Numbered from the stretch's first letter, positions 12,242 through 42,452 are shown. The stretch: DNA of 60,650 nt from an uncultured bacterium (GCA_964499705.1 CAZCME010000001.1:447243-507892), one strand, 5' to 3'. Numbers and translations are program-made. The notes: generated from the letters alone by a model not told the origin.

Positions 12242-13798
12242 ATGGGCTCGACCTTTTCTGCTCCGTCCGATCGCGACAGCATCGCTCTCCTCGAAGACGC
12301 GATGCGGTTCGTCGGCTTTACCGGCGACGACCTCGAAATTCTCCGCGGCCTCGCGCCGAAATTCCGTCCGCGATTCGCGGAGATGGCGGAGCTATTTTAC
12401 TCTTCGCTTCTCGCGCATCCCGGGGCGATGAGGGTTTTCTCCGGACCGGAACAGATCGAGCGCTTGAAGATCACGCTCATCCGGTGGGCGGAGGAACTCT
12501 TCACCGAAGAACGCGATGAAGCCTACGTGGTGAAGCGGCTCCGGATCGGAGCGGTGCATGTTTCGATCGATCTGGAGACCAAGTATATTCTCGGCGCCAT
12601 GGGGCTGGTCCGCGGTTTCCTTTCCGGAGCGGCGCGCCGCGGCCTGGCGGGCGAGGAAGCCAATGCCGCGATGGAATCCGTCAACCGCGCCTGCGACCTC
12701 GACATCATTCTCATGACCGAATCGTATCAGTTGAACACGCGCCTCCAGGACCTGGAGGAAGCCAACGATCGCCTGCGTCGCGTGCTGCAGCAGGCGCCGG
12801 TCGCGGTTTTTGTGTATGACGCGGGAGGTACGATCCGGGACTGGAATATCGCGTCCGAGAAACTCTACGGGTATGCCAGGCACGAGGCGGTCGGCGCCCA
12901 CATTCATGAATTGCTCGCCCTCCCCGCGGACAGGGATTTCGTGAAGGAACGTATTCGTCGCGTCTTCGAGGGCGTCTCCATAGGTCCGATGGAACAGGTG
13001 CATCTCGACAAGAAGGGGAGGCATCTGCGCCTGATTCTCGCTCATGCCGCGATTCGCGGCCCGCGCGGGATCGAGGAGGGAGTGGCGTTCGCGCTGGATC
13101 AGACCGAGATCGCGCAGTTACGCGAGAAGATGGTGGAACGGGAGAAGATCGCCGCCATGGGAACGCTGGCCGCCGGTCTCGCGCATGAAGTCGGCAACCC
13201 GCTCGCATCGATCTCCGCGATCTGCCAGCTCATCGAGAAGAAGGGCGACGACGGCAGGTTGAAGGAGCGCATCCGGACAGTCCGTGACGCGATCGACAGG
13301 ATCGATGTCATCGTCCGGCGCGTCCTGGAGTTCGCGCGCTCCAAGGGATCCTCGGATCATGAGTGTCTCGATCTCAAGGCCGCGGTCGCCGACGTCCTGA
13401 ACCTCGCGAGCATGGACCGAAGGGTGAAGAAGATGGAAGTAATGGAGCGGCTGCCCGAGAAACTTCCGGCCGTCCGCGTCCAGCGCACGGCGATGTCGCA
13501 GGTGCTCCTGAATCTCATTCTCAATTCCGCCGAAGCCTGTCGGGAAGGGGATCGGATCGAGATTCTCGCTGATGAGAATGACGGCGGCGTCAGTCTCATT
13601 ATTCAGGATAGCGGCCCCGGTTTCGCGGGCGAATCCCTGCACCGGGCGGTAGAGCCCTTCTACACGACGAAGGATTACGGATCCGGCCTCGGCCTTTCGA
13701 TCTCCTATTCGATCGTGGAGCGCGCGGGCGGGACATTGACGATTGCCAACGGGCCGGAAGGCGGCGCGCGCGTGGAGGTCTGGCTCCCTACGGCCTGA
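12242..13798 (+). CDS. Globin-coupled (protoglobin) PAS histidine kinase
   Basis: Globin domain FVGFTGDDLEIL...ELFYSSLLAHP...RLRIGAVHVSIDL; PAS domain (DWNIASEKLYGYARHEAVG); H-box AAGLAHEVGNPL; N, G1, F and G2 boxes (LILNSAEA, DSGPG, PFYTTK, GSGLGL). No TM segments. Confidence 0.92.
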   Translation: MGSTFSAPSDRDSIALLEDAMRFVGFTGDDLEILRGLAPKFRPRFAEMAELFYSSLLAHPGAMRVFSGPEQIERLKITLIRWAEELFTEERDEAYVVKRLRIGAVHVSIDLETKYILGAMGLVRGFLSGAARRGLAGEEANAAMESVNRACDLDIILMTESYQLNTRLQDLEEANDRLRRVLQQAPVAVFVYDAGGTIRDWNIASEKLYGYARHEAVGAHIHELLALPADRDFVKERIRRVFEGVSIGPMEQVHLDKKGRHLRLILAHAAIRGPRGIEEGVAFALDQTEIAQLREKMVEREKIAAMGTLAAGLAHEVGNPLASISAICQLIEKKGDDGRLKERIRTVRDAIDRIDVIVRRVLEFARSKGSSDHECLDLKAAVADVLNLASMDRRVKKMEVMERLPEKLPAVRVQRTAMSQVLLNLILNSAEACREGDRIEILADENDGGVSLIIQDSGPGFAGESLHRAVEPFYTTKDYGSGLGLSISYSIVERAGGTLTIANGPEGGARVEVWLPTA

Positions 13799-16817: not shown

Positions 16818-17333
16818 ATGCGCCGTGCGGGGATCAGGAGTTTAATCCGTTGTAAAGGCTTCACGCTCATTGAGTTACTTGTTGTGGTCACGATCATCGG
16901 TGTTCTGGCGGCGATCGCGCTGCCGCGGCTCCTCGGAGCCATCAAGACCGCGCGCGAAGGTCGAGCTCGCGGAAATCTGAGCGCGATACGGAAAGCGGTG
17001 CAGATGTATGCCGCCGATCATGCGGGAGCCTATCCCGCGAGACTGACGGATGTGGGACCCGGCGGGGGAAGTTCGACAACCGACGATACCATGATCCGCT
17101 ATTTTCCGGGCGGCATGATTCCCATCAATCCCATCGACGGCGAACTGAGCAGCGCCGCCCAGAATTTCGTCTGGAACCAGGCCAACTATGCGTCCGACTT
17201 TCCCGGTGGAATCAGCGTCATCGGCCCCGGCACCGACGGTTTCTGCTACTTCAACAAGGATGGCTGGGTCGCACTCAATTCCTCCAGCATCGCGACGAAC
17301 GGCAAGCCGTATTGCGACACCGAGACCTTCTGA
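16818..17333 (+). CDS. Type IV pilin/GspG-like pseudopilin
   Basis: Class III signal KG|FTLIELLVVVTIIGVLAAIALP with E5; NLSAIRKAVQMYAADHAGAYPARL; C-terminal Cys pair. Confidence 0.92.
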   Translation: MRRAGIRSLIRCKGFTLIELLVVVTIIGVLAAIALPRLLGAIKTAREGRARGNLSAIRKAVQMYAADHAGAYPARLTDVGPGGGSSTTDDTMIRYFPGGMIPINPIDGELSSAAQNFVWNQANYASDFPGGISVIGPGTDGFCYFNKDGWVALNSSSIATNGKPYCDTETF

Positions 17334-17390
17334 TTCCGCCTCGCCGGGTCCCGCGGCGCTGGCGGACGCCTCCCAGCCCGCCCCTTCGTC

Positions 17391-17419
17391 TTGACCTTTT
17401 GAACATGCTAATATCTAAT
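17391..17419 (+). promoter_or_regulatory. Sigma70-like promoter for the GH144 operon
   Basis: TTGACC-17-TCTAAT (also TGCTAATAT extended -10) in an AT-rich gap. Confidence 0.45.
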
Positions 17420-17435
17420 AGATGTAACCGCTTAC

Positions 17436-19469
17436 ATGGCCGATAAAGATCGAGTGTTCTCCGTCGGTGAGCCTTCCCGGTTCCGCCGGTTCGCGTTGCT
17501 CGCCGCCGGAGTGGTCGCGATGGCGTTCCTGGCGGCCGCTTACCTGGCCCGCTCGAGCCCCGGCCCCAGCCCCGGATCCGACCGCGACCGCGAGACCCTG
17601 TCGGGCGCTTCGAGCGAGGGATTCATACTGAACGACGAGGACAGGGTGCTGCTGGAAAAGATCGGCCGCGCGGGATTCGAGTATTTCTGGAACGAGGCCA
17701 ACCCGGATAATGGACTGGTGAAAGATCGCGCCCATAATTTCGAGCGGACTCCGGTGGACTATGCGCCCTGCTCGGTCGCGGCCGTCGGCTACGCACTCTC
17801 GTCGATCTGCGTCGCGATCGACAGAGGATGGATCGATCGCAAGGCGGGCTATGAGCGGATTCTCACGACGCTTCGATTCTTTCACAAGGTCCCCCACGTC
17901 CGCGGTTTCTTCTACCACTTTCTCGACATGAAAACGGGTCTCCGGACATGGAAATCGGAACTTTCGCCGATCGACTCCGTTCTCTTTCTTGCCGGCGCGC
18001 TTCATGCGGGGCGCTATTTCGAAGGAACGGAAATCGAGGAACTGGCGCAGGCGCTCTATGATCGCGTGGACTGGCCGTGGATGATGAACGGACGGCGGAC
18101 CCTGGCGATGGGATGGACACCGGAACAGGGCTTTATCGAGAATCACTGGGACCATTATTGCGAGGCCTCCATCATGTACTTCATGGCGATCGGTTCCCGC
18201 ACGCATCCGATCCCGGCGTCGGCCTGGGACGAGATCAGCAGGCCGATCGGCGGTTACGGCCATCATGTCTGCATCGCATCTCCGCCCCTGTTCACGCATC
18301 AGTATTCCCATACCTGGATCGATTTCAGGAACAAGTACGATGCCTATGCGGATTACTTCGAAAATTCGCGCCAGGCCACGCTTGCCAATCGCCAGTTCTG
18401 CATCGACTATGCGCATGTCTTCAAGACGTACAGTCCAAAATCGTGGGGCCTTACGGCATCGGAAGGTCCGGGCGGATACAAGGCCTACGGAGCCAAGCCT
18501 GGCCGGGCGCTCCATGACGGCACTATCGCGCCGACGGCCGCCCTGGGCTCGATCGTTTTCACGCCCCGTGAATCCCTGGATGTCGCCCGTTTTCTTCATG
18601 TGCATCGGCCCGAATTGTGGGGACAGTACGGATTCGTCGACTCCTATAACGACGATCGCTCCCTGTGGTACACCCGCGAGGTGATCGGCATCGACCAGGG
18701 AACGATCGTCCTGATGATCGAGAATTTTCTCTCCGGCTCCGTCTGGAAGAAATTCATGGAGATTCCGGAAATCAACGCGGGAATGACCGCCTGTGGATTT
18801 CAGGATGGCAGGAAGGTCTTCGACTACGACGAGAAAATTTACGATTATTTCGAATCCCGAATCGATTCCCGTCCGTTCGTGTCCATTCCGCGTTCCTCGA
18901 CCGCGATCACGATCGACGGGGATTCCAGCGACTGGTCAAGGTCCGGAGCCATCCGACTCACACCAAAGTCCAATCTCGAGATCGGCTCCATCGAGCGCGC
19001 CGCCGACGTCGAGGGTGATTTCCAGCTCGCCTACGACGACTCCTGCCTCTACATCCTCGCCGTTGTCCGGGATGATCAGTTCGTCAGCTTCCGCAAAGGC
19101 GAGAATATTCACTTCGACGACGGCCTTGAAATCTACATCGACCCGGGGAATGACGATCTCGCCTGGGGCAGTGAACAGGACTTCCAGATCGGCCTGACGC
19201 CGTCGGGACCTCGGGAATTGCCTCAGAAGTGGAGCTGGTTCCAGAACACGGACGGGGGCGACGAGATCCGTGTTGCATCTCAACTGCGAAGGCGTGATTA
19301 TCTCATCGAGGCCGCGCTTTCCTGGAAGTTCCTCCGCGTGAAACCGATGGCGGGAAAGAAGTTCGGCCTGACGATCGCTCTGAATGACCGCGACGCGTCG
19401 AATTTCGCGAAGCTGACGTGGTTCTTTCACGAGCCCGGAATCGTTCTGGGAAGGGCGGAGCTGGAATGA
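17436..19469 (+). CDS. Membrane-anchored glucoamylase-family (GH144-like, endo-beta-1,2-glucanase) hydrolase with a C-terminal CBM9-like domain
   Basis: N-terminal TM; GFFYHFLD, ELSPIDS, LYDRVDW, MGWTPE, PLFTHQYSH, WGLTASEGP, DGTIAPTAA, YGFVDSYN, IGIDQG. CBM9-like ITIDGDSSDW...AYDDSCLYILAVVRDD...DGLEIYID...IEAALSW. Confidence 0.88.
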   Translation: MADKDRVFSVGEPSRFRRFALLAAGVVAMAFLAAAYLARSSPGPSPGSDRDRETLSGASSEGFILNDEDRVLLEKIGRAGFEYFWNEANPDNGLVKDRAHNFERTPVDYAPCSVAAVGYALSSICVAIDRGWIDRKAGYERILTTLRFFHKVPHVRGFFYHFLDMKTGLRTWKSELSPIDSVLFLAGALHAGRYFEGTEIEELAQALYDRVDWPWMMNGRRTLAMGWTPEQGFIENHWDHYCEASIMYFMAIGSRTHPIPASAWDEISRPIGGYGHHVCIASPPLFTHQYSHTWIDFRNKYDAYADYFENSRQATLANRQFCIDYAHVFKTYSPKSWGLTASEGPGGYKAYGAKPGRALHDGTIAPTAALGSIVFTPRESLDVARFLHVHRPELWGQYGFVDSYNDDRSLWYTREVIGIDQGTIVLMIENFLSGSVWKKFMEIPEINAGMTACGFQDGRKVFDYDEKIYDYFESRIDSRPFVSIPRSSTAITIDGDSSDWSRSGAIRLTPKSNLEIGSIERAADVEGDFQLAYDDSCLYILAVVRDDQFVSFRKGENIHFDDGLEIYIDPGNDDLAWGSEQDFQIGLTPSGPRELPQKWSWFQNTDGGDEIRVASQLRRRDYLIEAALSWKFLRVKPMAGKKFGLTIALNDRDASNFAKLTWFFHEPGIVLGRAELE

Positions 19470-27080: not shown

Positions 27081-27827
27081 ATGAACAAGAACATCGTGTA
27101 CGTCACGCTCCTCCTGGGCCTCGGCGGATACTTCGCCTACGACACGTATTATCCGGAGTATGTTAAATGGGAATCGGAGATCGAGGAGCTTCAGAAGAAG
27201 ATCGATACAGCCAAGCAGAATGCTCCGAAGCTTGCGGACCTCCGGAAGGACGAGCAGCAGCTCAAGTCCCGCCTGCGCGCTTCTCTGGCGCAATTGCCTT
27301 CAGGGGCGGAGCTGACCGACCTGATGGTCATGGTCATGCCGCTCCTCGAGGAATGCGGCATATCCTCGTCGCGCATCACGCAGAAGAGCGTGGACAATCC
27401 CCAGTTGCAGCAGGTGTATCGCGTTCATCCGATCAAGATCAGCGGCATCAAGGATCTGTCCATGCAGACCATCATAGAAGTGATGCACAAGATTCGGGAG
27501 TTCAAGCGTATCATTAATGCCAAGAGCGTCCGGATGCAGCGGACCGGGCCCGACCGCTACACGCTGGATATGGACCTCGAAACGTATTCGTATATCGAGA
27601 CGGAAGGCGAGGATCTGGGCCTCGAAGAGGAGCCCGTTCCCGAGGAAACGCCCGCGACCCCGGCGGCTGAGACGACGCCCGCGGAGACGGAAAGCAGCGG
27701 CGAAACACAGGCCGCGGCGCCGGTGACCACCGAGGACACGCAGACCGCCGACGCGGAAAATGCGACCGAAACGGAGCAGGCCGGAGCGCCGTCGGACACG
27801 GGCGCCACGGCCGAAGGAGCGCGCTGA
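27081..27827 (+). CDS. pilO: Type IV pilus assembly protein PilO
   Basis: N-terminal TM, coiled coil, LAQLPSGAELTDLM, YRVHPIKI, IREFKRIINA, LETYSY; acidic tail; position after pilMN. Confidence 0.82.
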   Translation: MNKNIVYVTLLLGLGGYFAYDTYYPEYVKWESEIEELQKKIDTAKQNAPKLADLRKDEQQLKSRLRASLAQLPSGAELTDLMVMVMPLLEECGISSSRITQKSVDNPQLQQVYRVHPIKISGIKDLSMQTIIEVMHKIREFKRIINAKSVRMQRTGPDRYTLDMDLETYSYIETEGEDLGLEEEPVPEETPATPAAETTPAETESSGETQAAAPVTTEDTQTADAENATETEQAGAPSDTGATAEGAR

Positions 27828-28510
27828 TGGCGATCGCGATGCCGAAGGTCGATCCGATGAAGTCGGGATTCGTGGTGCTCCTGCTGGCTGACCTGGCTCT
27901 GGGATATCCGGTGTATGAAACATTCTCCGCGGATCCGAAAAGCGAAATGAAACCGGTCACGGTCCAGGCCAAGCCTATCCAGCTCCCCGGCGGATCCGAT
28001 GCGGATACGGAACAGATGAAGACGGGATTTCCGCCACGGGAACTGCTCGGTTGGGATCCCTTCAAGATTCCCAAGGGAGTCGGACCGATTGTGGAAGGAG
28101 AATCGGAAGGCCAGGCCGTGGTTTCGACCGGACAACCCGTCCAGACGGATAACATCCGGCTCCACGGCATCATTAACTTCAACGGGCAGTATCGCGCGCT
28201 CGTTTCGGTCGGTGGTGGAGCATCCACAATTGCTCCGCAACAGGGCGGCCAGGGACAAGGCCAGGGCGCGGCGGGGGCCTCGACCGCATCGAGCCTGAAT
28301 CCTCCGGAGGAAGTTCGCAAGGGGATGATCCTGCCGGGCACGAGCGACATCAAGGCGGAGGACATCCGTCGTGACGGAATGCTCCTGACGCAACCGGGAT
28401 CGCTGCCGACATTCCTGCCTCTGACCGTGCCTGGATTATCTTCACCGAAGCCGTGGTTTCGCGCCGATGACGCCTTTTCCATTCGAGGCAGGCTCGAGCT
28501 GAACCGATAA
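27827..28510 (+). CDS. PilP-like protein
   Basis: WDPFKIP motif followed by IRLHGII...YRALV...VRKGMIL; position between pilO and the secretin genes. No lipobox Cys seen. Confidence 0.6.
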   Translation: MAIAMPKVDPMKSGFVVLLLADLALGYPVYETFSADPKSEMKPVTVQAKPIQLPGGSDADTEQMKTGFPPRELLGWDPFKIPKGVGPIVEGESEGQAVVSTGQPVQTDNIRLHGIINFNGQYRALVSVGGGASTIAPQQGGQGQGQGAAGASTASSLNPPEEVRKGMILPGTSDIKAEDIRRDGMLLTQPGSLPTFLPLTVPGLSSPKPWFRADDAFSIRGRLELNR

Positions 28511-31600: not shown

Positions 31601-32307
31601 ATCCGGTGATCGCGGGGTCATCGAGCCGCCAGCCGGTCCTGGTTCCCGCCGAGGCATCCGGTTCGCCGCCGATCCGCCGGGATATCCCCACACTTCCCGC
31701 GCAGAACGCGGCTCCGGTGGCTCCGGTCGCTCCCGCCGCGAGCGCATCCCGCATGACGGATGTGGACCGGCTCGTCCGGGAGAATCGTTTCCCGGAGGCG
31801 CTTACGGTCGTGGACGAGCTGATCAGCGGAAATCCGAGCGACGCTTCGCTCCGTAATCTCCGTCGTCGTCTCGAAACGCTCACGAACATCATGAAGCAGC
31901 CTGCCGCTTCGGCGGCGCCGTCGCAGTCCATGTCGACCTCGACGAATCCCATGATGCCCGTGACCCCGATGGTGACAATGCCTCCTTCGCCCGAGGTGCC
32001 GGTACTCCCGATGATGCCGCAAAATCAATCTTTACAACCGCCTTCGCAGGCGATACAAATCCCAGACAAGTCTGTTCCAGCGGTTGTTCCGTCGCCCGTT
32101 CCGCCCGTCGCACCAACACCTCTTCCGGGCAAGCCTGAGGCTTCGGAGGACATGGTCGCGATGGAAGCGGCCGTTCGCGCCGGAAAGTATCGTGAGGCAT
32201 TGACGATATTGGACCGGCACATCGCGGCCAATCCGCAGGATTCCACCGCGGCAAGAATGAGAATACGAATTGAACAGATGATCAAAATATTGGACGGACA
32301 ACAGTGA
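28651..32307 (+). CDS. Large exported protein: 8 tandem Ig-like repeats, an AMIN-like domain, Pro-rich linkers and two TPR-like hairpins
   Basis: Signal peptide ..LHAPVQS; eight ~100-aa repeats F.I.AP..A.AGEPF.V.VTA.DxxGN...Y; C-terminal hairpins ENRFPEALTVVDELISGNPSD and AGKYREALTILDRHIAANPQD. The start may be ATG 28666. Confidence 0.82.
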   Translation: MIGLRMRLRASSSPFIRLVPVFSTLIVLLAMLHAPVQSQQLIIEAGPVASFEITAPSIARVGERIAIRVTARDAAGNIARTYDKSGGSVNLSTTPAPSGGEAVEPNRFAASAFRDGVLDATVTLMRAGTYELLVEDPAARVSARTGRIDVKPGEVASIRVMPPQEARVGEAFDVAIELYDRYGNSVSDYDRSGSEVRIKQGLAGSVGRFEPASVSPSLFSQGRATVRVRYSQAENAVILVEAGTARGVSSPVNVRAGELDRFIVTLPARKVIAGEPFGIVVEARDAGGNTITDYNRVGGVVSLRSTGTGNIEPSSLPPTAFSSGIAMVNVRYNITEKIGLIAEDQTGSKRGESSEKLEVVGGRLGRIEIVPAENARAGAPLAVQVLGYDIFGNFIRDYSERHMRIIVSSADAAPLEAPVVTSSSFRTGVAMITVTPVKAGMLIIQAVDDVSGAGGRSVPVRVKSGVVASFSIRTPLAAVAHEPFDVEVTALDRFGNVIDDYNRVGAGVVVDRPGQGEVSPVSIPPSAFVDGTARVNLTYNTAEEITLSMTEQGGTARGKSNPLVVTHSAPKRFIVKSGTHAAAGDPFRVTITAVDDFGNPVSTYSALNRTVSLYLENGDPVAPPVFSSATFRRGIAELDAVFFRTGDAVLVAEELGGAVSGKSGVVRVLPGRPSQLIVAAPASVEAGSPLAIRIEVKDRLGNRIRDYSPAAASLTLKIVSPNGEVLPNYVSLGDISRMVFREGVAELSVLPRQVGAIVFEVGDEMMNIAGRSQPVRVTSGPVDHFKVESLSQGSLRAGEPLKLRVTALDAFGNLVTQYGRDGSGARLMAQTKSGAGMVPASGVFVPSTIRGEAFHEGVAEIYALYDKAEAVDVLVDRLASGATVRPEVVAAAATVRAGGTLISIIGNSPLAMGDARRLTESLLEMMIPGAILSSKGVGVSRQSGIVSLVTLSQTDEGVRVLIHAMGPAVMRAGTDANRVVIDVDPVIAGSSSRQPVLVPAEASGSPPIRRDIPTLPAQNAAPVAPVAPAASASRMTDVDRLVRENRFPEALTVVDELISGNPSDASLRNLRRRLETLTNIMKQPAASAAPSQSMSTSTNPMMPVTPMVTMPPSPEVPVLPMMPQNQSLQPPSQAIQIPDKSVPAVVPSPVPPVAPTPLPGKPEASEDMVAMEAAVRAGKYREALTILDRHIAANPQDSTAARMRIRIEQMIKILDGQQ

Positions 32308-35300
32308 TAAAAAGCGGCAAGCGCAAGTCATTCTTCATCCTTCACACTTCCACCTTCATCCTTGCCTTATTGTGCCTGGGATTTTTCAGCGGGGACGCTC
32401 AGTCCCAGACGGCTCAGCAGGCCCAGGCGAATCCCGCCCTGGAACAGGCCGCTCTTTATTTCGCGCTCGGTTCCTTCGACGCGGCCGAAGCGGAAGTGCG
32501 GCGTTTTCTCTCGATGTATCCGGATCATGCGAGAAAAGGGGAGGCGATCAGCCTGCTGGCGGAGATCCGGATCGAGAAGGAGCGATCGAGAATCACGGCC
32601 ACCGCTCCTGACGTCTCAGGCTCCAGGGAAAATGTCCAGCCCGACAGGAACACAGGCGGCGCCACGCCGAAGGTTCTCGATCCCGCGATCCTTTCGTCTC
32701 CGCGCACCGAAGCTCCGGTCAAGTGGGAGAAGCAATTCCCGGGCGAACCATCGCAATTCCGGAAGGATGGCATCTATGCCGTCACGGCGAATGGCGAGGG
32801 ACCTCGCTCCACCATTCGCATTCTCTTCTCCGGCACCGGCGATGTTTCGTTCAGGCGGACCGGCTCGTCGCTGCTGATCGAGGTGGCCGGAGTCGCCGAT
32901 GCGTTGCCGCGCGGCAATATCGACCTGCCGGGCGGAGGCGCGACGCGGATCCGCCACGTGCAGGCGTCCACGGAACCTCTGGTGTCGAGAATCTCGATCG
33001 ACCTGAAGAGCGCGGAAGTGAAGGCGACGGTCACGCCGGCGGGTGAGGAGATCGTCGTCGAGATCGAGGATATCTCCAGCTCGACCGATCAGGCCGCGCC
33101 CCAGGGCGGGCTTTATCGGTCGCCGATTCCGTCGGATCGATACCGCGTCGACATCCTCGGCGGCAACTTCCAGCGAGCGCTCGTCGCGGACGGCTTGACG
33201 GAAGCCCTCGTCGTCAAGGTCGTGGATCGCTCCACCAACGCGCCCGTCGCGAACGCGACCGTGGAATTCTTCACGGTCAACGAGGGGATGAAACTTTCGG
33301 ACAAGTCCATGATGACCGGCCCCGCGGGTTCTGCTTCGACGAGGGTGACCCTGGACCAGGTCGCGGGCCGCAAGATCGTGACCGCGCGTGTCATGGGAAC
33401 GCCCGCCGAAGTTTCGTTCGAATTGTACGCATTGCCCCGGCCTCCGGACTCGATCCGGAAGGTATCCGGAGAAGACGCCAAGGTGAGGACGCGCCAGACC
33501 GTGGCGACGCCGCTTGTAGCCGTGGTGCAGGACATCTATGGAAATCCGGTGCCGGGCGTGGCCGTGGAGTGGGATTACATTTCCGGCGGCGGCAAGATCG
33601 ACGCGGACGTCGAGGCGCTGGGATCGCAGACGAAGATCGAGACCGACAAGGACGGCCGCGTCACGCTGAGGCAGTGGACGACGGGCGCGCAGGCGGGGGA
33701 ACACAGGATCCAGGCGTCGTTCACGTCGGGCGAGATCACGAAGTACGCTCAATTCTCGATCAACGTTGATCCCCAGCTTGTCTCCATGGACTTCTACCAG
33801 ACTTCCGTGCCCGAGATACTCCGGTTCCTCGGTCGGATCGCGAACTGGAACCTCGTTCTCTCCGACGGCGTCTCCAAGTTGATCGAGGCCGACGCCATGA
33901 TCACGGTCCATCTCGAGAATGTGCCGATCGACGACGCGCTCGACAAGATCCTCGCGACGAAGAAGCTGGCGCGGATCGAGGAACCGGACGGATCGATCAA
34001 GATCATGACCTTCATCGAGGCGCAGACGCGGGGCCAGTCGGTCATCACGGACCCGTCCCAGCTCGATGTGCTCCCGCAGGACATGGTGCGGACCGTCGTC
34101 CTCAACATCGCCCCGCGTTCAGACTTCGGAGCGACGGTGGGATCGATCCAGCCCCTGATGACGGAGCAGGGCAAGATCATCTCCGACCCGGCGAGCCGCA
34201 AGGTGGTCGTGACGGATTATGTTTCCGTGATTCGCCGCATCCGAGACATTCTTGTCGAGTTCGAGAAGGCGGAAGACCGGCGGATCCTGACGTTTGAGAA
34301 TCTCAATTTCGAGGCGGAGCAGCTCAAGGCGTTCATGACGCAGCAGCTCCCCCCCGAAGTGAAGACGCTCTACATGGGCCGCACCGCCGTGCTCCTGGGT
34401 CCGACCACGGCGATCGACCGTATCGAGAATATCCTGCGCGCTCTCGATACGAACGAAGGCATCATCCGCCCGGGCGACGAAGTGCAGGGCAAGCAATTCG
34501 AGATCATCCCGCTCCGGTCGCAGAAAGCGACGGAGCTCGCCGGGATTCTCCTGTCCGTCTTCACGACGAACCAGCGCGCCCAGCAGCTTCTCTCCAGCGT
34601 GAACGTGAACGTCCGCGAGGAGCGAGTGACGAACACGACGACGACGGCCGGCACGACGGGCCAGGCGGCGCAGACAACGCAGACGGCGGCCGAACCTCGA
34701 AGCGCCGCGTCGCAGGCGACGAACCTGCTCGGTAAAGCGTTCCAGCAGATCCAGGAGGAAGTGCGGATCGTCGCGGAGCCGCGCACGAATTCGCTGATTC
34801 TGTATGGACTGGCGAGCGATCTGGCGATCGTCAAGCAGGTCATCCAGCGCCTCGATTCGATCGATCTCGCGACCGAGGAACTTTCCCGCGACAAGGTCAA
34901 GATCATTCAGCTCCAGTTCCGCAGTTCCGCCGAGGTACTGACGGCTCTGCGGCAGATCATGAATCTCGAAGGCACGGCCACGACGGATGTAAATCCGGCC
35001 ATGGGATGGTGGAATTATTGGTACACGGGAGGCGTTACAACAACATCGGTGGGCGCGTCCAACACGGCTACTCAACTCGGAGTGGCAGGAACATTCACGG
35101 AGACGCAGCCGCTTCCCTTGAAAATATTCGATATTGCCGATCCGAATCTCATCATCATCGTGGGCGGCGATTCCAAGCAGCGACTGCTGGCGACGACCCT
35201 GATCGACGATCTCGACCAGGCTGTGACGAGGACGGGAAATTATCTCCAGCTGTATTCCATGAACCACGTCCTTCCCAGCGAATTCAACAAGCTGCTGGAG

Positions 35301-38300
35301 AAGACGGTCATCAACGACGTGGGAATGAACGATGCCGACTTCTATCTCTGGTGGTATTTCGGCCGCGCGCGGAGAACATCCGAAGTGCGGCGCATACCGA
35401 TCGACGCCTCCAAGCTGCTCCTCGTCTGGGCGCGCCGTGAAGTGCATCAGCAGATTTCCGATCTCCGGGACAAGATCGACAACGAGAATTACGCGAAGAT
35501 CTCCGACATGGTCGTGAAAGGCTATTCGGTCAAGCACGCGGATGTGTACACCGTCGCCCAGATTCTGACGCGGAATACGTTGAATCAGAGCGAGGACATC
35601 ACCGACGAATTTCTCTTCGTCGACAAGCTCGACAGCCGCATCGTCGTTTGGGCGCGCGAGGGCAGCCACGCCAAGATCGAGAAGATGCTGCCGCAGGTCG
35701 ACCGCCCCGAGCTCCGCTTCGACCCGCTTCTGAAATACGAGATCTACGAGTTCCAGAACATCTCGGTCGCGGAGGTCATCGGCGTGACGACGGCGGCGGA
35801 GCGGGACATCGTCCAGGACGCCGCGGGCTTCGGGCAGGCGGCCGCCACGACCGTCACTTCGAAGACCATCCTGCAACTCATCGCGGAGCCGCTGGGAACG
35901 GATCCTGGCCGCGGCATCTATCCGTCGATCACGGGCAATTTCATCCTGGTCTGGGGCCCGAACGGGCCGGTGGACAGGTCGATCGAGTTTGCCAAGCAGA
36001 TCGACCGCCGTTGGGAGAAGACAAAGATCGTCGTGAAGACGTACGAGATCAAGTACGGCGATCCGAAGACCGTAGCCAATTTCATCAACGCATCGATCTT
36101 CTCGGCCGCGACAGGCGGGGCCGCTGCGGCGGGCGCGGGTCAGGCCGCGGCTCCACCTTCCACCGAATTTCTTGTTCATGATGCGGCATCGCCGAAAAGG
36201 CTCCATATCTGGGCGCTTCCGGCTACTCATGATCGGATCAGGGGATACCTCTCCACGATCGATACCACGGCCTTCAGCTTCTCGAACTTCAAGATCTTCC
36301 GCGTCCCGGGCCTCTCGCCGAACGCCGCGGAGGAGATCATCAAGGGCGTGGCGCCCTCCGCGACGCTCTTCCAGGTCGGGGATCTCTGGATCATCATCGC
36401 CGATGTAGGTCCGCTCCAGAAGGTGGAAGAACTGATGCGGGCGATCACGAGGCCTGACACGGAGCCCATGACGATCCGCTACCTTCAGCTCTCCCGGTTG
36501 ACGACGCAAGATATCGTGCCGATTCTCGGACCGCGCTTCGGCATCACGATCGGCACGGAGGAATTCTCGGGCCGGTCGATCTTCACCATCAACAATGAGG
36601 AGGAGCTGAGGCGCTACGAGTCCTTCAGGAACGCGCAGCGATCACGGTCGCCGTTGACGGTTCTCGTCATGGAACGCCACAACATGCTCATCCTGATCGG
36701 CGACGAGATCTACGTGAAGCAGTGCGAGGATTTCGTCGGCGAGGTCGAGAACTCGACATCCGGGCGGCCGCGACTCGTGAGATTGCGCTATGTGGCTCCG
36801 CTCGTCTTTGCCGCCACCCTGAAGGAAATCTACCCGAATCTTCGGACATTCGACATCGGCCGCAACGATGCGATCGTCGTGATGGAGCAGGACGATACCG
36901 GCAAGGTCAACGCGCTCCTGCATATCATCGATCGTTCGCCCCGGGAAGGGGACACGGTCCCCGTGTACGAGATCGTCCAACTGAGGAATCGCGCCGCGAA
37001 CGAGGTCCAGACGGCAATCACGACACTTCTGACGAGCATCGGCACGTCGAGCGGCCGGTCCAATACGCCGCTGACTCTCTACGCGATCCAGGACGCCAAT
37101 GCTCTCGTTCTGACCGGCGGCAACCAGGAAGAACGAAACCTTGCCCGCAGAATCGCCATCGACATGGATTCGGAACCGTACAGGCAGAACAACTACATCC
37201 TTCTGTACACGTTCAAATATATTCTCCCGACGGAATTCGACAATTTTCTAGTCGCGACGATTGTCGACGAGCGGACGGAGCGTATCACGACGGGAACCGC
37301 GACGGCGGAAGAGGGCCGCACGACGATCACGCAGACGATCACGAACGCGAAGCGCATCCCCATCGATTCCCTGAAGCTTTTGATGGTCCGGACGACACGC
37401 GAGATCCATCAGCAGATCAGCGACCTCATCGCGCTCGTCGATACCGCGGGCTTCGGCGAAAAGCTCGAGTTGCGGCAGAGATATTACAATGTCAAGAATG
37501 CGTCGCTGGACGTGATCGCGAACATCATTCAGCGCCAGACGCTCAATCAGCACTCCGGAATCGCGGACGAATTCGTCATCATCGACCGCCAGAACCGCCG
37601 GCTCGCCATATGGGCCCGCGAAGGCGCCCACACGAAGATCGAGCGGCTGCTGCCGGTCTACGACAAGACCGAAGTGCAGTTCGATCCCGACGATGAGTTC
37701 GATTCGTACGTTCTGCAATATGTGTCCTTGCCGATTCTCCAGCAGGGAATTCAGATCATCGAGCAGATCCAGACGATTCTGGGACCCGGGCGCGTCGTTT
37801 ATTCCTCGGGCGGCGCCGCCGGCAACTTTGTCCTGATGTGGGGCAACCGCGCGGCTCTCAGTCGCGCCAAGGAGACGCTCCGCCGCCTCGACATGGCGGT
37901 GAAGGATCAGGTCGGCGGTGAATCCAACGTGCGGTTCGTGGAGATCCACAATCGGCCGGTCACGGAACTCATGGCGGAATTGAAGGGTCTCTACGGCCTC
38001 AATACCAACATGATCCCGATGAGCCGCGCCGACGGAAGCCCGAAGAACGGGCTCATGCTCTTCGTTCCTCACGCGCTCCTGGGGCCGATCCTGAAGACGA
38101 TCGAGGCGCTCGATACCACCACGCCGGTCATGATCGTTCCGGTGGCGCGGCGTAGTCCCACGGATCTCGCCGATCTGTTGACGATCCAGTACCCGGAGCT
38201 CAGCATCACGGCGTTCACGACTCCAAGCGCCCTGCTGTTGCGCGGATCGGCTCGTCGGCTCGCCGATGCGAAGCGTTTGATCGAGCAGCTGGACACGACG

Positions 38301-41300
38301 GGTTTCATCCGCATGTTCACACTGCAGGTGGCTCCGCCCGCCGAAGTCATGGCGAGCCTGCAGCTGATGTTCCCCGGAGTGCTCTTCGTCGCGATTGCGG
38401 ATAACCAGCTTGTGTACGCCAGGGCGGGCAACGAGGCGACCATGGCGCAGATCGAAAGCGCGGTGAAGGCCCTCGATGCGCTGGATGTGGAGATGATCGA
38501 GATCATGAAGGCGGACGACGACGGCATCTCCGATGTTCTCCGTCCCGCTTTCCCGTCGCTCCTCATCGAATACCAGCACCAGGGCCCCATGCACACCTAC
38601 ATGGTCCTGAAGGGCGCCCGCAACCTGATTGCGCAGGCCAAGGAATTGATCAAGAGGATGGAGAACATCGACGCGCACATCGTTCGCCTGGCGTATCGCA
38701 CTCCCTTGGAGATCTCCAATCAGATCGCCATCATCTACCAGGATCTGTCGATCGGACTATTTCCCGTGGCGGGGATAAACGCGATCGGTTTCATCGCGAC
38801 TCCCGAGAAGGCCAAGCTCGTGAAGGACCTCATCCGGACGCTGGATACGCCCGCGACAATCGCCTACTACCAGTTGAAATACATGTCCACCGCCGACCTG
38901 CTGCCGGCGATCACGGCGACGGTGACCAACGTGATCACGACCGAGATCACGTCTCCGGTTGTCTACGGAAACACCTGGATGATCTTCACCGGTGATCGCG
39001 GTCCCGTGCAGGATGCGGTGAATGTCGCGACCATGCTCGACACGGTCACGCCCACGATCATCCTCTCGCCGAAAATCCAGACGAGCGCCCAGATGACCAC
39101 AACCTTGTTGGCCGCCATACCGAATCTGCGCGTTCTCGCGTTCACGGGAACGGCGGGCGGGGACTACATCCTGGTCACCGGATCGCAGTCGCTGATTCGA
39201 GAAGCGAAGAAGATCTTCGCGGAGATCGACACGGAACTCCCGACCCGGATCTTCCGCTCCTCCTATCTTCACACCCAGCCTGATCTCCTGAACGTCATCA
39301 CCAGCCTCTTCCGCGATATCCGGACGATTTCGCTCGGAACGTCGGCGGGCGGCGGGTTCGAGATGGTGCTCGCAACGGGTCCGCAGTCCCGTCTGGACGA
39401 GCTGGCCCGGTTCTGGGCCACGGTGGATACCCCGGGCCGGATGGTCCCGTACTGGCCCGTGAATCGACCTCTTGCGGATCTGCTGACGCCCCTGGGCGAG
39501 CTCATGCCTCATGTCGGACGGATCGCCGTCGCCAGCGCCACCGGCATCGCGCCGGATGTCGTCATGCTCTATGGCGATGCTCCGCGTGTTGAAGAAGCGC
39601 TCGACTTCCTCCGGAAGATCGACGTCGCCGGCGATGTGAAGCTCCTCGCCTACGGTCGTCTTGCCGCCGCGGATGCCTCGGCGCTGGTGGCCGCCTATTT
39701 TCCCGCGATCACGCTCCAGTCGCTCTCCAACGGCAGCATCCTCGCGGTCGCGGGCAACAAGCAGGTGCTGCAAGCCGCGGAGAAACTTCTTTCGGAGATT
39801 GAGAATGGGCTCCACTGGCGCATCGTTCCCCTGATCCGCATGACAGCTGTACAGGCGGAGGCGCTCGTGACCGATCTCTTCGGATCCGTCCGCGTCACGC
39901 AGCTTCCCGCCGGCAACGGCGTCGTGCTCGTCGGCACCGAGGTGAACCTCGCGGAAGCCATCGATATGCTCCGGCGCATCGACCAGCGCGAAGTGACGCT
40001 CATCCCGATCAAGGAAGCCGACCTCGCGACGCTGGCCCAGGCCGCGACGGCGTTCTTCCCGGAGGCTCAGATTTCGCAGATGGCCACGATCAACTCGCTG
40101 GCGATTTCCGCCGACACGGCCATGGTCGCCGCCATCAGGAAATTCATCGAGAGCGTCGACAAGGAGCGCCACACCGCGATCCGGCCGCTGAAGTACTACG
40201 ACCCGACGACATCCGGCGAGCTCGGCGAACTGACGACGACACTGCAGTCCTACCTCTCGGCTGACGGAACGATCTTTTTCGACCGGCAGTCGAACGCCTA
40301 CGTGATGTCGGACGGCATCGCGAAGCTGGAGAAAGCGCTGAAAGTGCTCGACGATCTCGATCGCGCTCCCCCCCAATTCATCATCGAGGCCGTGATCGCG
40401 GAAGTGAGCATCAGCGACGCCAAGAACCTCGGCTTCTCCTGGTCATACAGGCCCGACCTGACGGCTGTCGGGCTGGCGCCTCCGGCGCTCCTGACCATCC
40501 CGGCGTCCGGCGGATCGAACGCGGACTTCGGAGGCTCGGGAACGTTCACGCTCGGACTCGCGCGCGATAATCTGCAGGCGACCCTTTCCGCGCTCCTGTC
40601 CAAAAACGACGCCCGGATCGTCGCGACGCCGAAGATCGTCACCAGAAACAACGTCACCGGCGAAGTCAGGCTCCAGCAGAGCTTCCCCGTGACGACGACG
40701 AATCCCGGCACAGCGACCACGGCGCCCTCGACCACCGTCACGTTCCAGCCCGTCCCGACGACGTTGCGGGTGACGCCGTCGTCCTCGTGGAATTCCGACG
40801 CGATCCGGATGACGGTCGCGGCCGACATCAGCGTGCCCGGCGCCGCCACGACGACGGGCGCCGTCCCGGTCTCCTCGCGGATCGTCAACACGACGGTCGA
40901 CATGCGGGATGGCCAGACGCTCATCATCGGCGGGCTCATGCAGAAGAACAAGACGGAGGCCGTCTCCAAGATCCCGATTCTCGGAGACATACCAGGCATC
41001 GGAAATATCTTCAAGTCCACGACGACCGGCGAGGAGAATCGCGAGGTTCTCATCTTCCTTTCTCCGCGCGTCATCTATCCGCAGACGCACGATCTGCAGA
41101 TGGAGGAAGAGCTGAATCGATACAAGTATCTTGTCAACTTCCCCGTGGACTGGTCCGGCCGCCGCTGGCTCATCAACAACCAGCAGCGCTCGCCCGGACT
41201 GCGGCAGCAGATGAACCAGGGCAGCAATTTCATCCTGCAGCCGCCGGGAACTCCCGCGCCTTCGACGCCACCGCCGCCGGCGCCCGTCGTTCCGCCCGCC

Positions 41301-42452
41301 GAAGGGCGATCGTCGATGGCTCCCGCGACGACGAGCATGCCGCCGTCCTACATCGCCCCGATGATTGCTCCGAGCGCACCCGCTCCGCAACCGACCTACA
41401 CGCCGGCTCCTCAGCCGGTATCGGAGCCGGCCTTCCTCGGCGGCGTTACGACGACATGGAATATCAACACGGCGACGGCCGCCGAATTGAAGATGATTCC
41501 CGACATGCCGCCGCACGTGGCTCAACTGATCGTCGCCTACCGCAATGCGAATGGTTCGTTCCAGACGTTGAACGATCTTCTGAATGTCCCGGGGATGACA
41601 CCGGACATACTCGAACGATCCCGCAAATACCTGCGGATGACTTCCGAGACGACGATGGTCGCGCCGACACCGCCCGCGGCGAACATGCCGCCCGCGCCCA
41701 TGACGATCACGCCCATGGCCTCATCGAACCTGGTGAACATCAACACGGCCGGCGTGGCGGAGCTGATGACGCTGCCGGGACTGACCGAAGCGAACGCGCG
41801 GATGATACTCGCCTATCGCGGCACGTACGGTTCATTCTCCACGCCCGATCAATTGATCGACGTCCCGGGCATCACGCCGACGATGTATGGCGCCATCCGC
41901 GACAGGGTGACCGTGTCCAGCGCTCCGCCGCCGTCCTATGCGCCCCAGCCGTCCTACACGCCCCAGCCATCCGCGATGCCGAGCGCCTATTCGCAACCGA
42001 TGTCCGGACCCGTCAACATCAACACCGCCGACGAAGTGGCGCTCATGCAGATCGGATTTTCGGAGCAGAACGCGAAGTTGATCGTCGCATGGAGAAGCAG
42101 CTACGGATTCTTCACTTCGATCGACGAGCTTCTCGATGTTCCATCGATCACGAGCGACATACTCGATCCGATCCGGCCCTGGCTGACGATCGGCGGAGGT
42201 TCCGCTCCCGCGGCGCCGGCGCCCGCGCCTTCCTCCTACACGCCGCCCGCTCCGAGCGGAAACCTGGTGAACGTTAACACGGCGGACGAAGTGACGCTCA
42301 TGCAGCTGGGATTATCCGAGCAGAATGCGAAGCTGATCGTGGCATGGAGGAACAGTTACGGCCCGTTCAATACCCTGGAGGAATTGCTGGACGTGCCGTC
42401 GATAACGCAGGAAATATTCGACCGGGTCCGGAACCGCCTGACTCTCCGGTAA
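32304..42452 (+). CDS. Giant outer-membrane secretin (PilQ/GspD family, 3382 aa) with AMIN, 2 Ig-like, STN, ~28 N-domains, secretin core and 4 ComEA-like HhH domains
   Basis: Signal peptide; STN (VSMDFYQTSVPEILRFL..ITVHLENVPIDDALDKIL); repeated NolW/N-domains ending ..I..LD. Core motifs LDRAPPQFIIEAVIAEVS, ATPKIVTRNN, DGQTLIIGGL, KIPILGDIPGIGNIFKS, EVLIFLSPRVI. Four (V/W)N(I/V)NTA...A.(L/M)I(V/L)A(Y/W)R...G.F....L..VP units. Confidence 0.92.
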   Translation: MIKSGKRKSFFILHTSTFILALLCLGFFSGDAQSQTAQQAQANPALEQAALYFALGSFDAAEAEVRRFLSMYPDHARKGEAISLLAEIRIEKERSRITATAPDVSGSRENVQPDRNTGGATPKVLDPAILSSPRTEAPVKWEKQFPGEPSQFRKDGIYAVTANGEGPRSTIRILFSGTGDVSFRRTGSSLLIEVAGVADALPRGNIDLPGGGATRIRHVQASTEPLVSRISIDLKSAEVKATVTPAGEEIVVEIEDISSSTDQAAPQGGLYRSPIPSDRYRVDILGGNFQRALVADGLTEALVVKVVDRSTNAPVANATVEFFTVNEGMKLSDKSMMTGPAGSASTRVTLDQVAGRKIVTARVMGTPAEVSFELYALPRPPDSIRKVSGEDAKVRTRQTVATPLVAVVQDIYGNPVPGVAVEWDYISGGGKIDADVEALGSQTKIETDKDGRVTLRQWTTGAQAGEHRIQASFTSGEITKYAQFSINVDPQLVSMDFYQTSVPEILRFLGRIANWNLVLSDGVSKLIEADAMITVHLENVPIDDALDKILATKKLARIEEPDGSIKIMTFIEAQTRGQSVITDPSQLDVLPQDMVRTVVLNIAPRSDFGATVGSIQPLMTEQGKIISDPASRKVVVTDYVSVIRRIRDILVEFEKAEDRRILTFENLNFEAEQLKAFMTQQLPPEVKTLYMGRTAVLLGPTTAIDRIENILRALDTNEGIIRPGDEVQGKQFEIIPLRSQKATELAGILLSVFTTNQRAQQLLSSVNVNVREERVTNTTTTAGTTGQAAQTTQTAAEPRSAASQATNLLGKAFQQIQEEVRIVAEPRTNSLILYGLASDLAIVKQVIQRLDSIDLATEELSRDKVKIIQLQFRSSAEVLTALRQIMNLEGTATTDVNPAMGWWNYWYTGGVTTTSVGASNTATQLGVAGTFTETQPLPLKIFDIADPNLIIIVGGDSKQRLLATTLIDDLDQAVTRTGNYLQLYSMNHVLPSEFNKLLEKTVINDVGMNDADFYLWWYFGRARRTSEVRRIPIDASKLLLVWARREVHQQISDLRDKIDNENYAKISDMVVKGYSVKHADVYTVAQILTRNTLNQSEDITDEFLFVDKLDSRIVVWAREGSHAKIEKMLPQVDRPELRFDPLLKYEIYEFQNISVAEVIGVTTAAERDIVQDAAGFGQAAATTVTSKTILQLIAEPLGTDPGRGIYPSITGNFILVWGPNGPVDRSIEFAKQIDRRWEKTKIVVKTYEIKYGDPKTVANFINASIFSAATGGAAAAGAGQAAAPPSTEFLVHDAASPKRLHIWALPATHDRIRGYLSTIDTTAFSFSNFKIFRVPGLSPNAAEEIIKGVAPSATLFQVGDLWIIIADVGPLQKVEELMRAITRPDTEPMTIRYLQLSRLTTQDIVPILGPRFGITIGTEEFSGRSIFTINNEEELRRYESFRNAQRSRSPLTVLVMERHNMLILIGDEIYVKQCEDFVGEVENSTSGRPRLVRLRYVAPLVFAATLKEIYPNLRTFDIGRNDAIVVMEQDDTGKVNALLHIIDRSPREGDTVPVYEIVQLRNRAANEVQTAITTLLTSIGTSSGRSNTPLTLYAIQDANALVLTGGNQEERNLARRIAIDMDSEPYRQNNYILLYTFKYILPTEFDNFLVATIVDERTERITTGTATAEEGRTTITQTITNAKRIPIDSLKLLMVRTTREIHQQISDLIALVDTAGFGEKLELRQRYYNVKNASLDVIANIIQRQTLNQHSGIADEFVIIDRQNRRLAIWAREGAHTKIERLLPVYDKTEVQFDPDDEFDSYVLQYVSLPILQQGIQIIEQIQTILGPGRVVYSSGGAAGNFVLMWGNRAALSRAKETLRRLDMAVKDQVGGESNVRFVEIHNRPVTELMAELKGLYGLNTNMIPMSRADGSPKNGLMLFVPHALLGPILKTIEALDTTTPVMIVPVARRSPTDLADLLTIQYPELSITAFTTPSALLLRGSARRLADAKRLIEQLDTTGFIRMFTLQVAPPAEVMASLQLMFPGVLFVAIADNQLVYARAGNEATMAQIESAVKALDALDVEMIEIMKADDDGISDVLRPAFPSLLIEYQHQGPMHTYMVLKGARNLIAQAKELIKRMENIDAHIVRLAYRTPLEISNQIAIIYQDLSIGLFPVAGINAIGFIATPEKAKLVKDLIRTLDTPATIAYYQLKYMSTADLLPAITATVTNVITTEITSPVVYGNTWMIFTGDRGPVQDAVNVATMLDTVTPTIILSPKIQTSAQMTTTLLAAIPNLRVLAFTGTAGGDYILVTGSQSLIREAKKIFAEIDTELPTRIFRSSYLHTQPDLLNVITSLFRDIRTISLGTSAGGGFEMVLATGPQSRLDELARFWATVDTPGRMVPYWPVNRPLADLLTPLGELMPHVGRIAVASATGIAPDVVMLYGDAPRVEEALDFLRKIDVAGDVKLLAYGRLAAADASALVAAYFPAITLQSLSNGSILAVAGNKQVLQAAEKLLSEIENGLHWRIVPLIRMTAVQAEALVTDLFGSVRVTQLPAGNGVVLVGTEVNLAEAIDMLRRIDQREVTLIPIKEADLATLAQAATAFFPEAQISQMATINSLAISADTAMVAAIRKFIESVDKERHTAIRPLKYYDPTTSGELGELTTTLQSYLSADGTIFFDRQSNAYVMSDGIAKLEKALKVLDDLDRAPPQFIIEAVIAEVSISDAKNLGFSWSYRPDLTAVGLAPPALLTIPASGGSNADFGGSGTFTLGLARDNLQATLSALLSKNDARIVATPKIVTRNNVTGEVRLQQSFPVTTTNPGTATTAPSTTVTFQPVPTTLRVTPSSSWNSDAIRMTVAADISVPGAATTTGAVPVSSRIVNTTVDMRDGQTLIIGGLMQKNKTEAVSKIPILGDIPGIGNIFKSTTTGEENREVLIFLSPRVIYPQTHDLQMEEELNRYKYLVNFPVDWSGRRWLINNQQRSPGLRQQMNQGSNFILQPPGTPAPSTPPPPAPVVPPAEGRSSMAPATTSMPPSYIAPMIAPSAPAPQPTYTPAPQPVSEPAFLGGVTTTWNINTATAAELKMIPDMPPHVAQLIVAYRNANGSFQTLNDLLNVPGMTPDILERSRKYLRMTSETTMVAPTPPAANMPPAPMTITPMASSNLVNINTAGVAELMTLPGLTEANARMILAYRGTYGSFSTPDQLIDVPGITPTMYGAIRDRVTVSSAPPPSYAPQPSYTPQPSAMPSAYSQPMSGPVNINTADEVALMQIGFSEQNAKLIVAWRSSYGFFTSIDELLDVPSITSDILDPIRPWLTIGGGSAPAAPAPAPSSYTPPAPSGNLVNVNTADEVTLMQLGLSEQNAKLIVAWRNSYGPFNTLEELLDVPSITQEIFDRVRNRLTLR

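Follow-up and report, generated by a model that had tools for sequence, protein, structure and literature searches.

Secretins, the pore proteins of the outer membrane, and ComEA, the DNA receptor of competence, a small free protein that is periplasmic or membrane-anchored and has an extracytoplasmic link to type IV pilus-type machines, are both well studied, always as separate proteins, and the ratchet model of DNA uptake assumes a freely diffusing ComEA. In PMC3879209, the Vibrio cholerae ComEA change K63A lowered transformation about 250-fold, K63E, K62/63A, G60V and G60E abolished function, and G60A was tolerated. The equivalent lysine of Bacillus subtilis ComEA, K164, is described as 'at least as well conserved as the HhH signature residues' (HhH, helix-hairpin-helix), and the changes K164A and K199A led to losses above 2 logs each in PMC9747964, where the domain is defined as a compact (HhH)2 fold of four helices that has a loop in place of the connector helix. 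The stretch of DNA analysed here (the window, 60,650 nucleotides, GCA_964499705.1 CAZCME010000001.1:447243-507892) comes from an uncultivated Hydrogenedentota bacterium and encodes a secretin of 3382 amino acids that ends in four HhH units. This tail is specific to its lineage and is appended to the C-terminus of a PilQ-like secretin of giant size. The reading proposed for it, with a probability of roughly 0.45, is that the HhH domains were re-purposed and would serve as tethers that do not bind DNA, placed in the periplasm on the outside of a very long conduit formed by the secretin.

The protein shares with PilQ and GspD secretins the PF00263 barrel, the N-domain architecture and a pilM/N-pilO operon. 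It shares with the S-domain secretins of type II secretion systems (T2SS), such as GspD and PulD, a post-strand helix at the sequence position of the S-domain. In contrast to PilQ and GspD, it is four to five times longer, carries about 27 N-domain repeats and continues past the S-like helix into a tail of about 440 residues, which was seen in none of the solved secretins compared. Its domains follow in the order putative signal peptide, immunoglobulin-like (Ig) domains, secretin N-domain repeats, barrel, S-domain-like helix, Pro-rich spacer and four HHH_3 domains (Table 1), the first residues being those that look like a signal peptide. When the whole protein was compared with Pfam, it matched Secretin at residues 2763-2924 (E 3.2e-38), HHH_3 in four stretches (E 1.9e-63), Secretin_N (PF03958, E 4e-54) and Big_1 in two stretches (E 2.1e-10). 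The N-domain-like repeats, counted approximately by an iterated self-profile, number about 27 here vs 17-23 in relatives and, if stacked as rings as in known secretins, imply a periplasmic conduit several-fold longer than in model bacteria. The secretin is among the largest met in this analysis. On residues 2559-2990 both NCBIfam profiles stay under their cut-offs, PilQ TIGR02515 with 170.1 bits (cut-off 284.35) and GspD TIGR02517 with 200.9 bits (cut-off 351.35), and the name PilQ-like is given from operon context and not from family membership.

The four C-terminal units belong to the family of ComEA. Scanned singly, with borders anchored on the N-[IV]-N-T-A motif, each of them passes the HHH_3 cut-off (PF12836, 27 bits), and by this profile single-unit scores of 49-69 bits lie far above chance. 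The C-terminal 383 amino acids alone match HHH_3 in four stretches with an E-value of 7.5e-67, and TIGR00426, the ComEA HhH repeat, reaches 157 bits over four stretches (cut-off 53.1). The comEA protein profile TIGR01259 gives 149.1 bits, which is under its cut-off of 152.35 even as a sum over four repeats. Profiles of other HhH-type families fit less well: T2SSK (PF03934, cut-off 24.2) scores 27.9, 22.3, 16.2 and 19.5 bits on units 1 to 4, so that unit 1 alone passes, GspK NF037980 reaches 53.2 bits (cut-off 130) and PsbU (PF06514) at best 16.0 bits on a single unit (cut-off 24.5). On the whole tail, Pfam gives T2SSK an E-value of 8.7e-18 and PsbU one of 5.2e-7, the latter with 30.0 bits that arise only as a sum.

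The predicted structure of the tail agrees with this assignment. An AlphaFold2 (AF2) model of 454 residues, built from an alignment of five genomes, contains four domains of four helices each with a predicted local distance difference test (pLDDT) of 80-92. The inter-unit linkers, which are 30, 31 and 23 amino acids long, of Pro/Ser/Tyr type and 23-30% proline, have a pLDDT below 50, and the predicted template modelling score (pTM) is 0.22; the tail is therefore best pictured as beads on a string without fixed packing. Unit 1 is separated from the Pfam secretin domain by 126 amino acids. The Foldseek E-values were weak (best 3.2e-3) for this multi-domain query with disordered linkers, and per-domain root-mean-square deviation (rmsd) and TM-score were used instead. 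By these measures the top structural neighbour is Geobacillus stearothermophilus ComEA (8dss_B, rmsd 1.4 A over 66 columns, 36% identity), followed by the HhH domain of Tex, the ComEA-related Thermus thermophilus protein 2duy (TMt 0.80), KIF22 and many PsbU chains. Profiles and model together thus predict that the four units are of the ComEA-type (HhH)2 fold, with a loop replacing the connector helix.

What the units have lost is the part of ComEA that grips DNA. Their first hairpins read PDMPPHVA, PGLTEANA, GFSEQNA and GLSEQNA, and the G-h-G hairpin is kept in none of the eight hairpins of this protein. The second Gly is replaced by P, T, S and S in hairpin 1 of units 1 to 4 and by T in hairpin 2 of all four, while the position of the key Lys of ComEA, just before the conserved Ala, is occupied by V, N, N and N. 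In phmmer alignments to two ComEA chains, the sole Lys of the first HhH motif (lpgigpaKana, sgvgpsKaea) stands opposite the Val of unit 1 (ipdmpphVa vs lpgigpaKa). Acidic residues flank both hairpins, and in contrast to ComEA the units are neutral to acidic. The preliminary description of this locus had named the units ComEA-like DNA-binding domains fused behind a Pro-rich linker. Its coordinates agree with the present ones within 0-5 nucleotides, the example peptide it quoted is unit 2 letter for letter, the HHH_3 and ComEA profile scan it proposed gave the scores reported above, and the fusion was confirmed in one frame here and in four other genomes. Its caution about altered hairpins and acidic units 3 and 4 (net charges -5 and -2) holds as well. 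As to the name itself, the ComEA family and the predicted fold stand, but the DNA-contact residues are replaced in all four units.

The same replacement runs through the whole family. In the hmmsearch alignment, 51 secretin-fused units could be counted in 15 proteins or fragments (the domain table gives 50 for the same 15), among which P0023 and P0025, without a secretin part, were placed in the family by similarity alone. They were set against 291 units of 80 other proteins that had been picked by similarity to this tail and are not a curated ComEA set; the bias of such a choice should run towards the tail and not away from it. A G-h-G hairpin 1 occurs in 0/51 fused units vs 178/291 others, and a G-h-G hairpin 2 in 0/51 vs 186/291. 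In the same way, Lys or Arg precedes the conserved Ala in 3/51 fused units vs 76/291 others, and lies within three residues after hairpin 1 in 6/51 vs 124/291. The fused units have their own residues instead: Thr at the second-Gly position of hairpin 2 (39/51), Glu or Asp two residues past it (37/51), where Lys is the commonest residue of the other units, Asn before the conserved Ala (21/51) and Arg or Lys after it (38/51). The resulting family signature is [P/x]-G-h-[T/S] followed by an acidic residue, together with N-A-[R/K]-[L/M]-I, and the most distant fused members show a like pattern (PGLN, PELN, PNMT, QGLS, PGIT). Because the replacement residues are themselves conserved and the G-h-G hairpin is absent throughout the family, the change would reflect altered function and selection rather than decay or drift. 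It points to a DNA-gripping face rebuilt for another use, which is the main argument for re-purposing. Within the genome of the window, 7 of the 12 other HHH_3 domains keep at least one intact G-h-G, as read from their sequences, vs 0/4 of the secretin units.

The fused form was found in all five Hydrogenedentota genomes examined, the window's own included. Secretin and four-unit tail stand in one frame in the four other genomes, and the fusion is therefore not an assembly artefact; a pattern scan of species-representative genomes returned the identical four relatives and none further. A word-index search with secretin and tail gave 15 proteins. Five of them have Secretin plus HHH_3 (2492-3242 amino acids, 48-74% identity; one is named Candidatus Hydrogenedentota), and the remaining 10 are giant secretins of other lineages, 2001-4950 amino acids long and without HHH_3. 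With the tail alone, three proteins were obtained, namely a fragment that matches the window with full identity, a secretin from Hydrogenedentes that is partial, and a protein with Lactamase_B and HHH_3. When 1.84 billion representatives were searched exhaustively, 51,483 matches were obtained at E <= 0.001, and the best 150 were examined, 25 of them by Pfam scan and 7 by precomputed Pfam, the remainder being judged by the part of the query matched. Among these best 150 of 51,483 matches, the Secretin plus HHH_3 architecture that the preliminary description had suggested looking for was present in 13: P0018, which is the window's own fragment, P0003-P0007, P0019, P0021, P0022, P0024, P0094, P0124 and P0132. 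All 13 are giant secretins of at least 1925 amino acids or fragments of such, with 4, 3 or 2 HHH_3 domains, and the fused members that bear a name are called Hydrogenedentota or just 'bacterium'.

Compared between the five genomes, the units show 55-70% identity and 0-1% gaps, vs 25-34% identity and 18-21% gaps in the linkers, which indicates that the domains are constrained and the spacers free to drift. Unit 2 is the most conserved (70%). In a tree built from the 28 units of 7 proteins, the unit-1 copies form one clade and the unit-2 copies another, each with 99% support in the SH-like approximate likelihood ratio test (SH-aLRT). Units 3 and 4 are intermixed within one clade, where those of the window and P0003 stand together (90%), a grouping that suggests concerted evolution or recent duplication. 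Since units cluster by position across proteins, the four-unit layout would be older than the divergence of these genomes. Units 3 and 4 also co-vary by lineage, with AKLIVAWR in both units of the window and P0003 and V/IKLI(I/L)AYR in both units of P0004, P0006 and P0007; this pattern points to gene conversion or a shared ligand. Shorter distant members carry fewer units, three in P0022 (2267 amino acids) and two each in P0094 (2228 amino acids) and P0124 (1925 amino acids). The idea that unit number scales with the N-domain column, as one strut per ring, was rejected in this form, for proteins with 17-27 repeats all have four units in the close family. An AMIN domain is not claimed for the secretin of the window, the scan of its N-terminus being weak (E 0.14), and AMIN is significant in the distant fused relatives P0094 (4.4e-7) and P0124 (3.5e-6).

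The place where the tail leaves the barrel bears on the side of the membrane on which it would act. The S-domain-like helix is the best-conserved piece of the tail, with 84% pairwise identity over residues 2929-2960 in the five genomes, and the spacer behind it (residues 2961-3050) falls to 34% identity and 21% gaps. A weak, low-confidence helix is modelled in the first part of the spacer (model residues 405-414). An AF2 model of residues 2559-2990 from a 44-sequence alignment (pLDDT 81.5) comprises two N-domains, the barrel and the post-strand helix, and its barrel compares with solved T2SS, type III secretion system (T3SS) and PilQ secretins at Z 12.6-15.1. In the VIA comparison, the S-domain T2SS secretins (GspD 5zdh and 5wq9, PulD 6hcg, EpsD 6i1y) align as far as model residues 411-418, T2SS chains overall as far as 394-418, and three PilQ structures end at 368-372. 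S-domains lie on the outer wall of the barrel, at its periplasmic face. As an S-like helix follows the barrel directly here, the tail would start outside the lumen, and it probably hangs in the periplasm off the outer wall. According to their entry titles, solved pores are 14- and 15-mers for PilQ and a 13-mer for RcpA, and a pore of 13-15 subunits would by this count carry about 52-60 HhH domains.

Taken together, these observations can be arranged into a tentative mechanism in which re-purposed tethers surround the conduit. An S-domain-like helix would be followed by a Pro-rich spacer of about 100 residues and by four domains of ComEA fold on spacers of 23-31 residues. Because the ComEA signature has been replaced by a conserved one and units 1 and 2 are orthologous across species, the units may act as flexible, position-specific tethers for a partner other than DNA, either a protein or a component of the envelope. 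Such tethers might hold or organise the long trans-periplasmic conduit, or recruit factors to it. In their working mode they would resemble the HhH modules of the minor pseudopilin GspK and of PsbU, an extrinsic protein of photosystem II. To our knowledge, neither of these modules is known to bind DNA. GspK/XcpX and PsbU have HhH-type domains outside the cytoplasm and give weak profile matches to the tail, but the tail lacks the pilin N-terminus of GspK, and the likeness concerns the proposed working mode, not membership. The reading also gains from redundancy, as the genome separately encodes ComEA-like proteins with two domains each, in two adjacent genes, and three of these four domains have intact GIG/GVG hairpins. 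A two-domain ComEA-like protein of this kind is encoded at G000:C2:337809-338516.

Several points weigh against this reading. No binding partner of the tail was identified in this sequence and model analysis, and the units are much nearer to ComEA-type HHH_3 (49-69 bits) than to T2SSK (16-28) or PsbU (at most 16). A basic residue after the conserved Ala is kept in units 2-4 (R, K, K), as is an Arg that stands where B. subtilis has K199, so that an atypical contact with DNA is possible. The Gly to Ser change in hairpin 1 of units 3 and 4 need not be fatal, given that G60A is tolerated. Net charge was rejected as a discriminator of the secretin units, since the 12 other HHH_3 domains of the genome span just -3 to +3, and the comparison set of 291 units was, as said, chosen by similarity. 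The periplasmic placement rests on the ends of alignment ranges at an rmsd of 7-9 A, which are suggestive and no proof. Moreover, in PMC4453517, C-terminal Strep tags of BfpB and Pseudomonas aeruginosa PilQ were labelled on intact cells and those of type II and type III secretins were not.

The explanation that comes next is a ComEA built into the pore, in which the HhH domains bind incoming DNA non-specifically in the periplasm and some 50-60 tethered sites per pore form a local sink for DNA or a Brownian ratchet, which would serve transformation or nutrition. This is considered unlikely, though it has points in its favour. The units are ComEA-type by HMM (hidden Markov model) and by predicted fold, the secretin lies within a pilM/N-pilO operon, and multivalency could offset weak single sites. 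Units 2-4 also keep a basic residue behind the conserved Ala, and the Arg at the K199-equivalent position is retained. The genome contains DprA and three genes with a Competence domain (ComEC-like), one of them with an N-terminal GYF_2. The preliminary description had held that a genome without uptake genes would speak for a structural role; comEC-like genes, dprA and stand-alone comEA-like genes are all present. In addition, a secreted-type SNase-HHH_3 nuclease and many HHH_3 proteins suggest that handling of DNA outside the cytoplasm matters to this organism, whose HHH_3 family is expanded to 16 domain matches. They are also found in TPR/coiled-coil proteins ending in HHH_3 and in an Ig-like protein ending in HHH_3. 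On the other side stand the loss of G-h-G from 8/8 hairpins and 0/51 units family-wide, the key Lys turned into V/N/N/N, and acidic residues round the hairpins with net charges of +1, -1, -5 and -2. In V. cholerae ComEA, K63E and G60V/E suffice to abolish function according to PMC3879209. The tail is likely to emerge from the outer wall of the barrel, away from the lumen, the stand-alone ComEA-like proteins are already there, and the position-specific divergence of units 1, 2 and 3/4 is unexpected for generic avidity for DNA. The DNA ratchet at the channel that the preliminary description had envisaged is thus not supported, with G-h-G and Lys lost and the tail likely outside the lumen. With six secretin loci and 20 T2SSE-family ATPase matches over cut-off in a genome of 4.67 Mb, any of several pores may serve DNA uptake, if one does.

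A related view, judged rather unlikely, makes the tail a pore-tethered DNA handler, in which about 50-60 atypical, acidic HhH modules on Pro-rich leashes would bind DNA or hand it over along the conduit of about 27 rings. In such a scheme the tail might cooperate with further proteins of the envelope that have HHH_3 tails: the TPR/coiled-coil proteins, the SNase nuclease and a receptor adenylate cyclase. The nuclease (L041, G000:C2:151082-151852) is homologous to staphylococcal nuclease, has an N-terminus like a signal peptide and a C-terminal HHH_3, and lies about 9-16 kb from two of the ComEC-like genes on the same contig. The receptor-type protein (L044, G000:C14:40941-44540, minus strand) carries HHH_3 twice in its N-terminal part, in one case with a canonical GIGAAKA hairpin, together with HAMP, GYF_2 and an adenylate/guanylate cyclase domain, and it might sense DNA outside the cytoplasm.

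It is quite improbable that the C-terminus is extracellular and that the HhH beads form a crown round the mouth of the pore, where they would catch DNA or another ligand or serve adhesion. The surface labelling of the tags on two type IV pilus secretins, seen for neither type II nor type III ones in PMC4453517, and the long extended Pro-rich spacers would fit such a fringe. However, the conserved post-strand helix falls in the range of the S-domain T2SS secretins, a class without surface-exposed C-termini in that paper, the barrel is nearer to GspD than to PilQ by NCBIfam score although under both cut-offs, and the DNA-binding signature is lost in this case too. Finally, domains without any specific ligand, as relics or inert beads that make an entropic spacer or steric fence round the pore, would agree with the lack of an identified partner, the model without fixed inter-domain packing (pTM 0.22) and the vanished canonical residues, but this is very doubtful in view of units that are 55-70% identical with almost no indels vs 25-34% in the linkers, of units 1 and 2 that are orthologous across 7 proteins and of new hairpin surface residues that are conserved across deeply diverged members.

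Among solved structures, the best sequence match of the tail is not ComEA but the N-terminal tandem HhH of EEPD1 (9yi2_A, E 3.3e-17; P0002 residues 142-319, window 41724-42257). The match spans units 2 and 3 with the linker between them, and EEPD1 shares with the tail G-h-T and G-h-S hairpins (lpgvtravarsiveyr, rglsekmalsivdfr). It differs in being eukaryotic, cytoplasmic or membrane-associated, and fused to an EEP nuclease-fold domain.

The anatomy of the secretin-HhH tail is solid, and it is undescribed so far as the literature searched shows: no description of a secretin-HhH fusion was found in main texts without supplements, and the words pili, pilus, secretin, competence and ComEA do not occur in the main text of the Hydrogenedentota genome papers examined. 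A specialist of pili or competence would find the architecture surprising, even though the sequence evidence leans against DNA binding. If the domains still bind DNA, they offer a natural test of whether diffusion can be replaced by a receptor tethered to the pore. Otherwise, the ComEA fold would have been recruited as a periplasmic protein-binding module, a third extracytoplasmic use of HhH without DNA beside GspK and PsbU. Were the handling of DNA nonetheless true, a ComEA function would be built into the secretin, and capture of DNA outside the cytoplasm, or feeding on it, would be a hallmark of the lineage. The repeats in turn imply an unusually long trans-envelope conduit in this phylum. 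We know of no cultured member of the Hydrogenedentota with a described envelope. In practice, such tails are labelled by NCBI as 'helix-hairpin-helix domain-containing protein' only, and the family motif (G-h-T/S plus an acidic residue, and N-A-R/K) would be a simple marker for their annotation.

Table 1. Features of the giant secretin and of its operon, in window coordinates.
Feature	Position	Strand	Description
PilM fusion, long C-terminal part, 814 aa	24634..27078	+	PilM_2 E 3.3e-40; TIGR01175 163 bits (cut-off 133)
PilO, 248 aa	27081..27827	+	PF04350 E 1.5e-12
Conserved 227-aa protein at pilP position	27827..28510	+	without family match; 37% identity to syntenic gene of genome G002
Ig-repeat (Ig/filamin) protein with C-terminal TPR, 1218 aa	28651..32307	+	directly upstream; stop overlaps secretin start
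Giant secretin, whole gene	32304..42452	+	single open frame, 3382 aa; GTG start
Big_1 (bacterial Ig-like), best stretch	33180..33404	+	residues 293-367; second stretch downstream of it
Secretin N-domain-like repeat array, ~27 copies	34026..40376	+	residues 575-2691; iterated self-profile
Secretin beta-barrel domain (PF00263)	40590..41075	+	residues 2763-2924; Pfam E 3.2e-38; AF2 pLDDT 81.5
S-domain-like helix	41079..41132	+	residues 2926-2943, HDLQMEEELNRYKYL...; model helix 368-385, straight after last barrel strand
Spacer to unit 1	41133..41453	+	mostly Pro/Ala/Ser/Thr-rich; predicted disordered (pLDDT <50)
HhH unit 1	41454..41639	+	residues 3051-3112; HHH_3 69.0 bits; hairpins IPDMP, VPGMT; net charge +1; pI 8.1
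HhH unit 2	41730..41915	+	residues 3143-3204; HHH_3 63.1 bits; hairpins LPGLT, VPGIT; net charge -1; pI 4.9
HhH unit 3	42009..42194	+	residues 3236-3297; HHH_3 49.0 bits; hairpins IGFS, VPSIT; net charge -5; pI 4.05
HhH unit 4 (C-terminus)	42264..42449	+	residues 3321-3382; HHH_3 56.4 bits; hairpins LGLS, VPSIT; net charge -2; pI 4.8

The secretin gene is the last of an operon with the order pilM/N, pilO, a gene at the pilP position, Ig/TPR and secretin, all on the same strand, and 4 nucleotides are shared between its GTG start and the stop of the preceding gene. Gene order and sizes recur in the genomes G002 and G001, and in the latter the PilM fusion also matches PilN. The operon holds the sole strong PilM_2 match in the genome. 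The PilM fusion has a low-complexity stretch at residues 377-461 that matches Nucleoporin_FG, and it resembles the Amuc_1101 PilM-like family with 162 bits, which is under the cut-off of 650. The 1218-amino-acid Ig/TPR protein is a possible pilotin-like or accessory partner of the secretin.

Two other places in the window may be mentioned. About 5 kb upstream of the pil operon, at 16818-19469, a protein of 171 amino acids with a prepilin-type N-methylation motif is followed by a glucoamylase-like protein with CBM9. At 12242-13798, an open reading frame encodes a fusion of protoglobin, PAS and histidine kinase.

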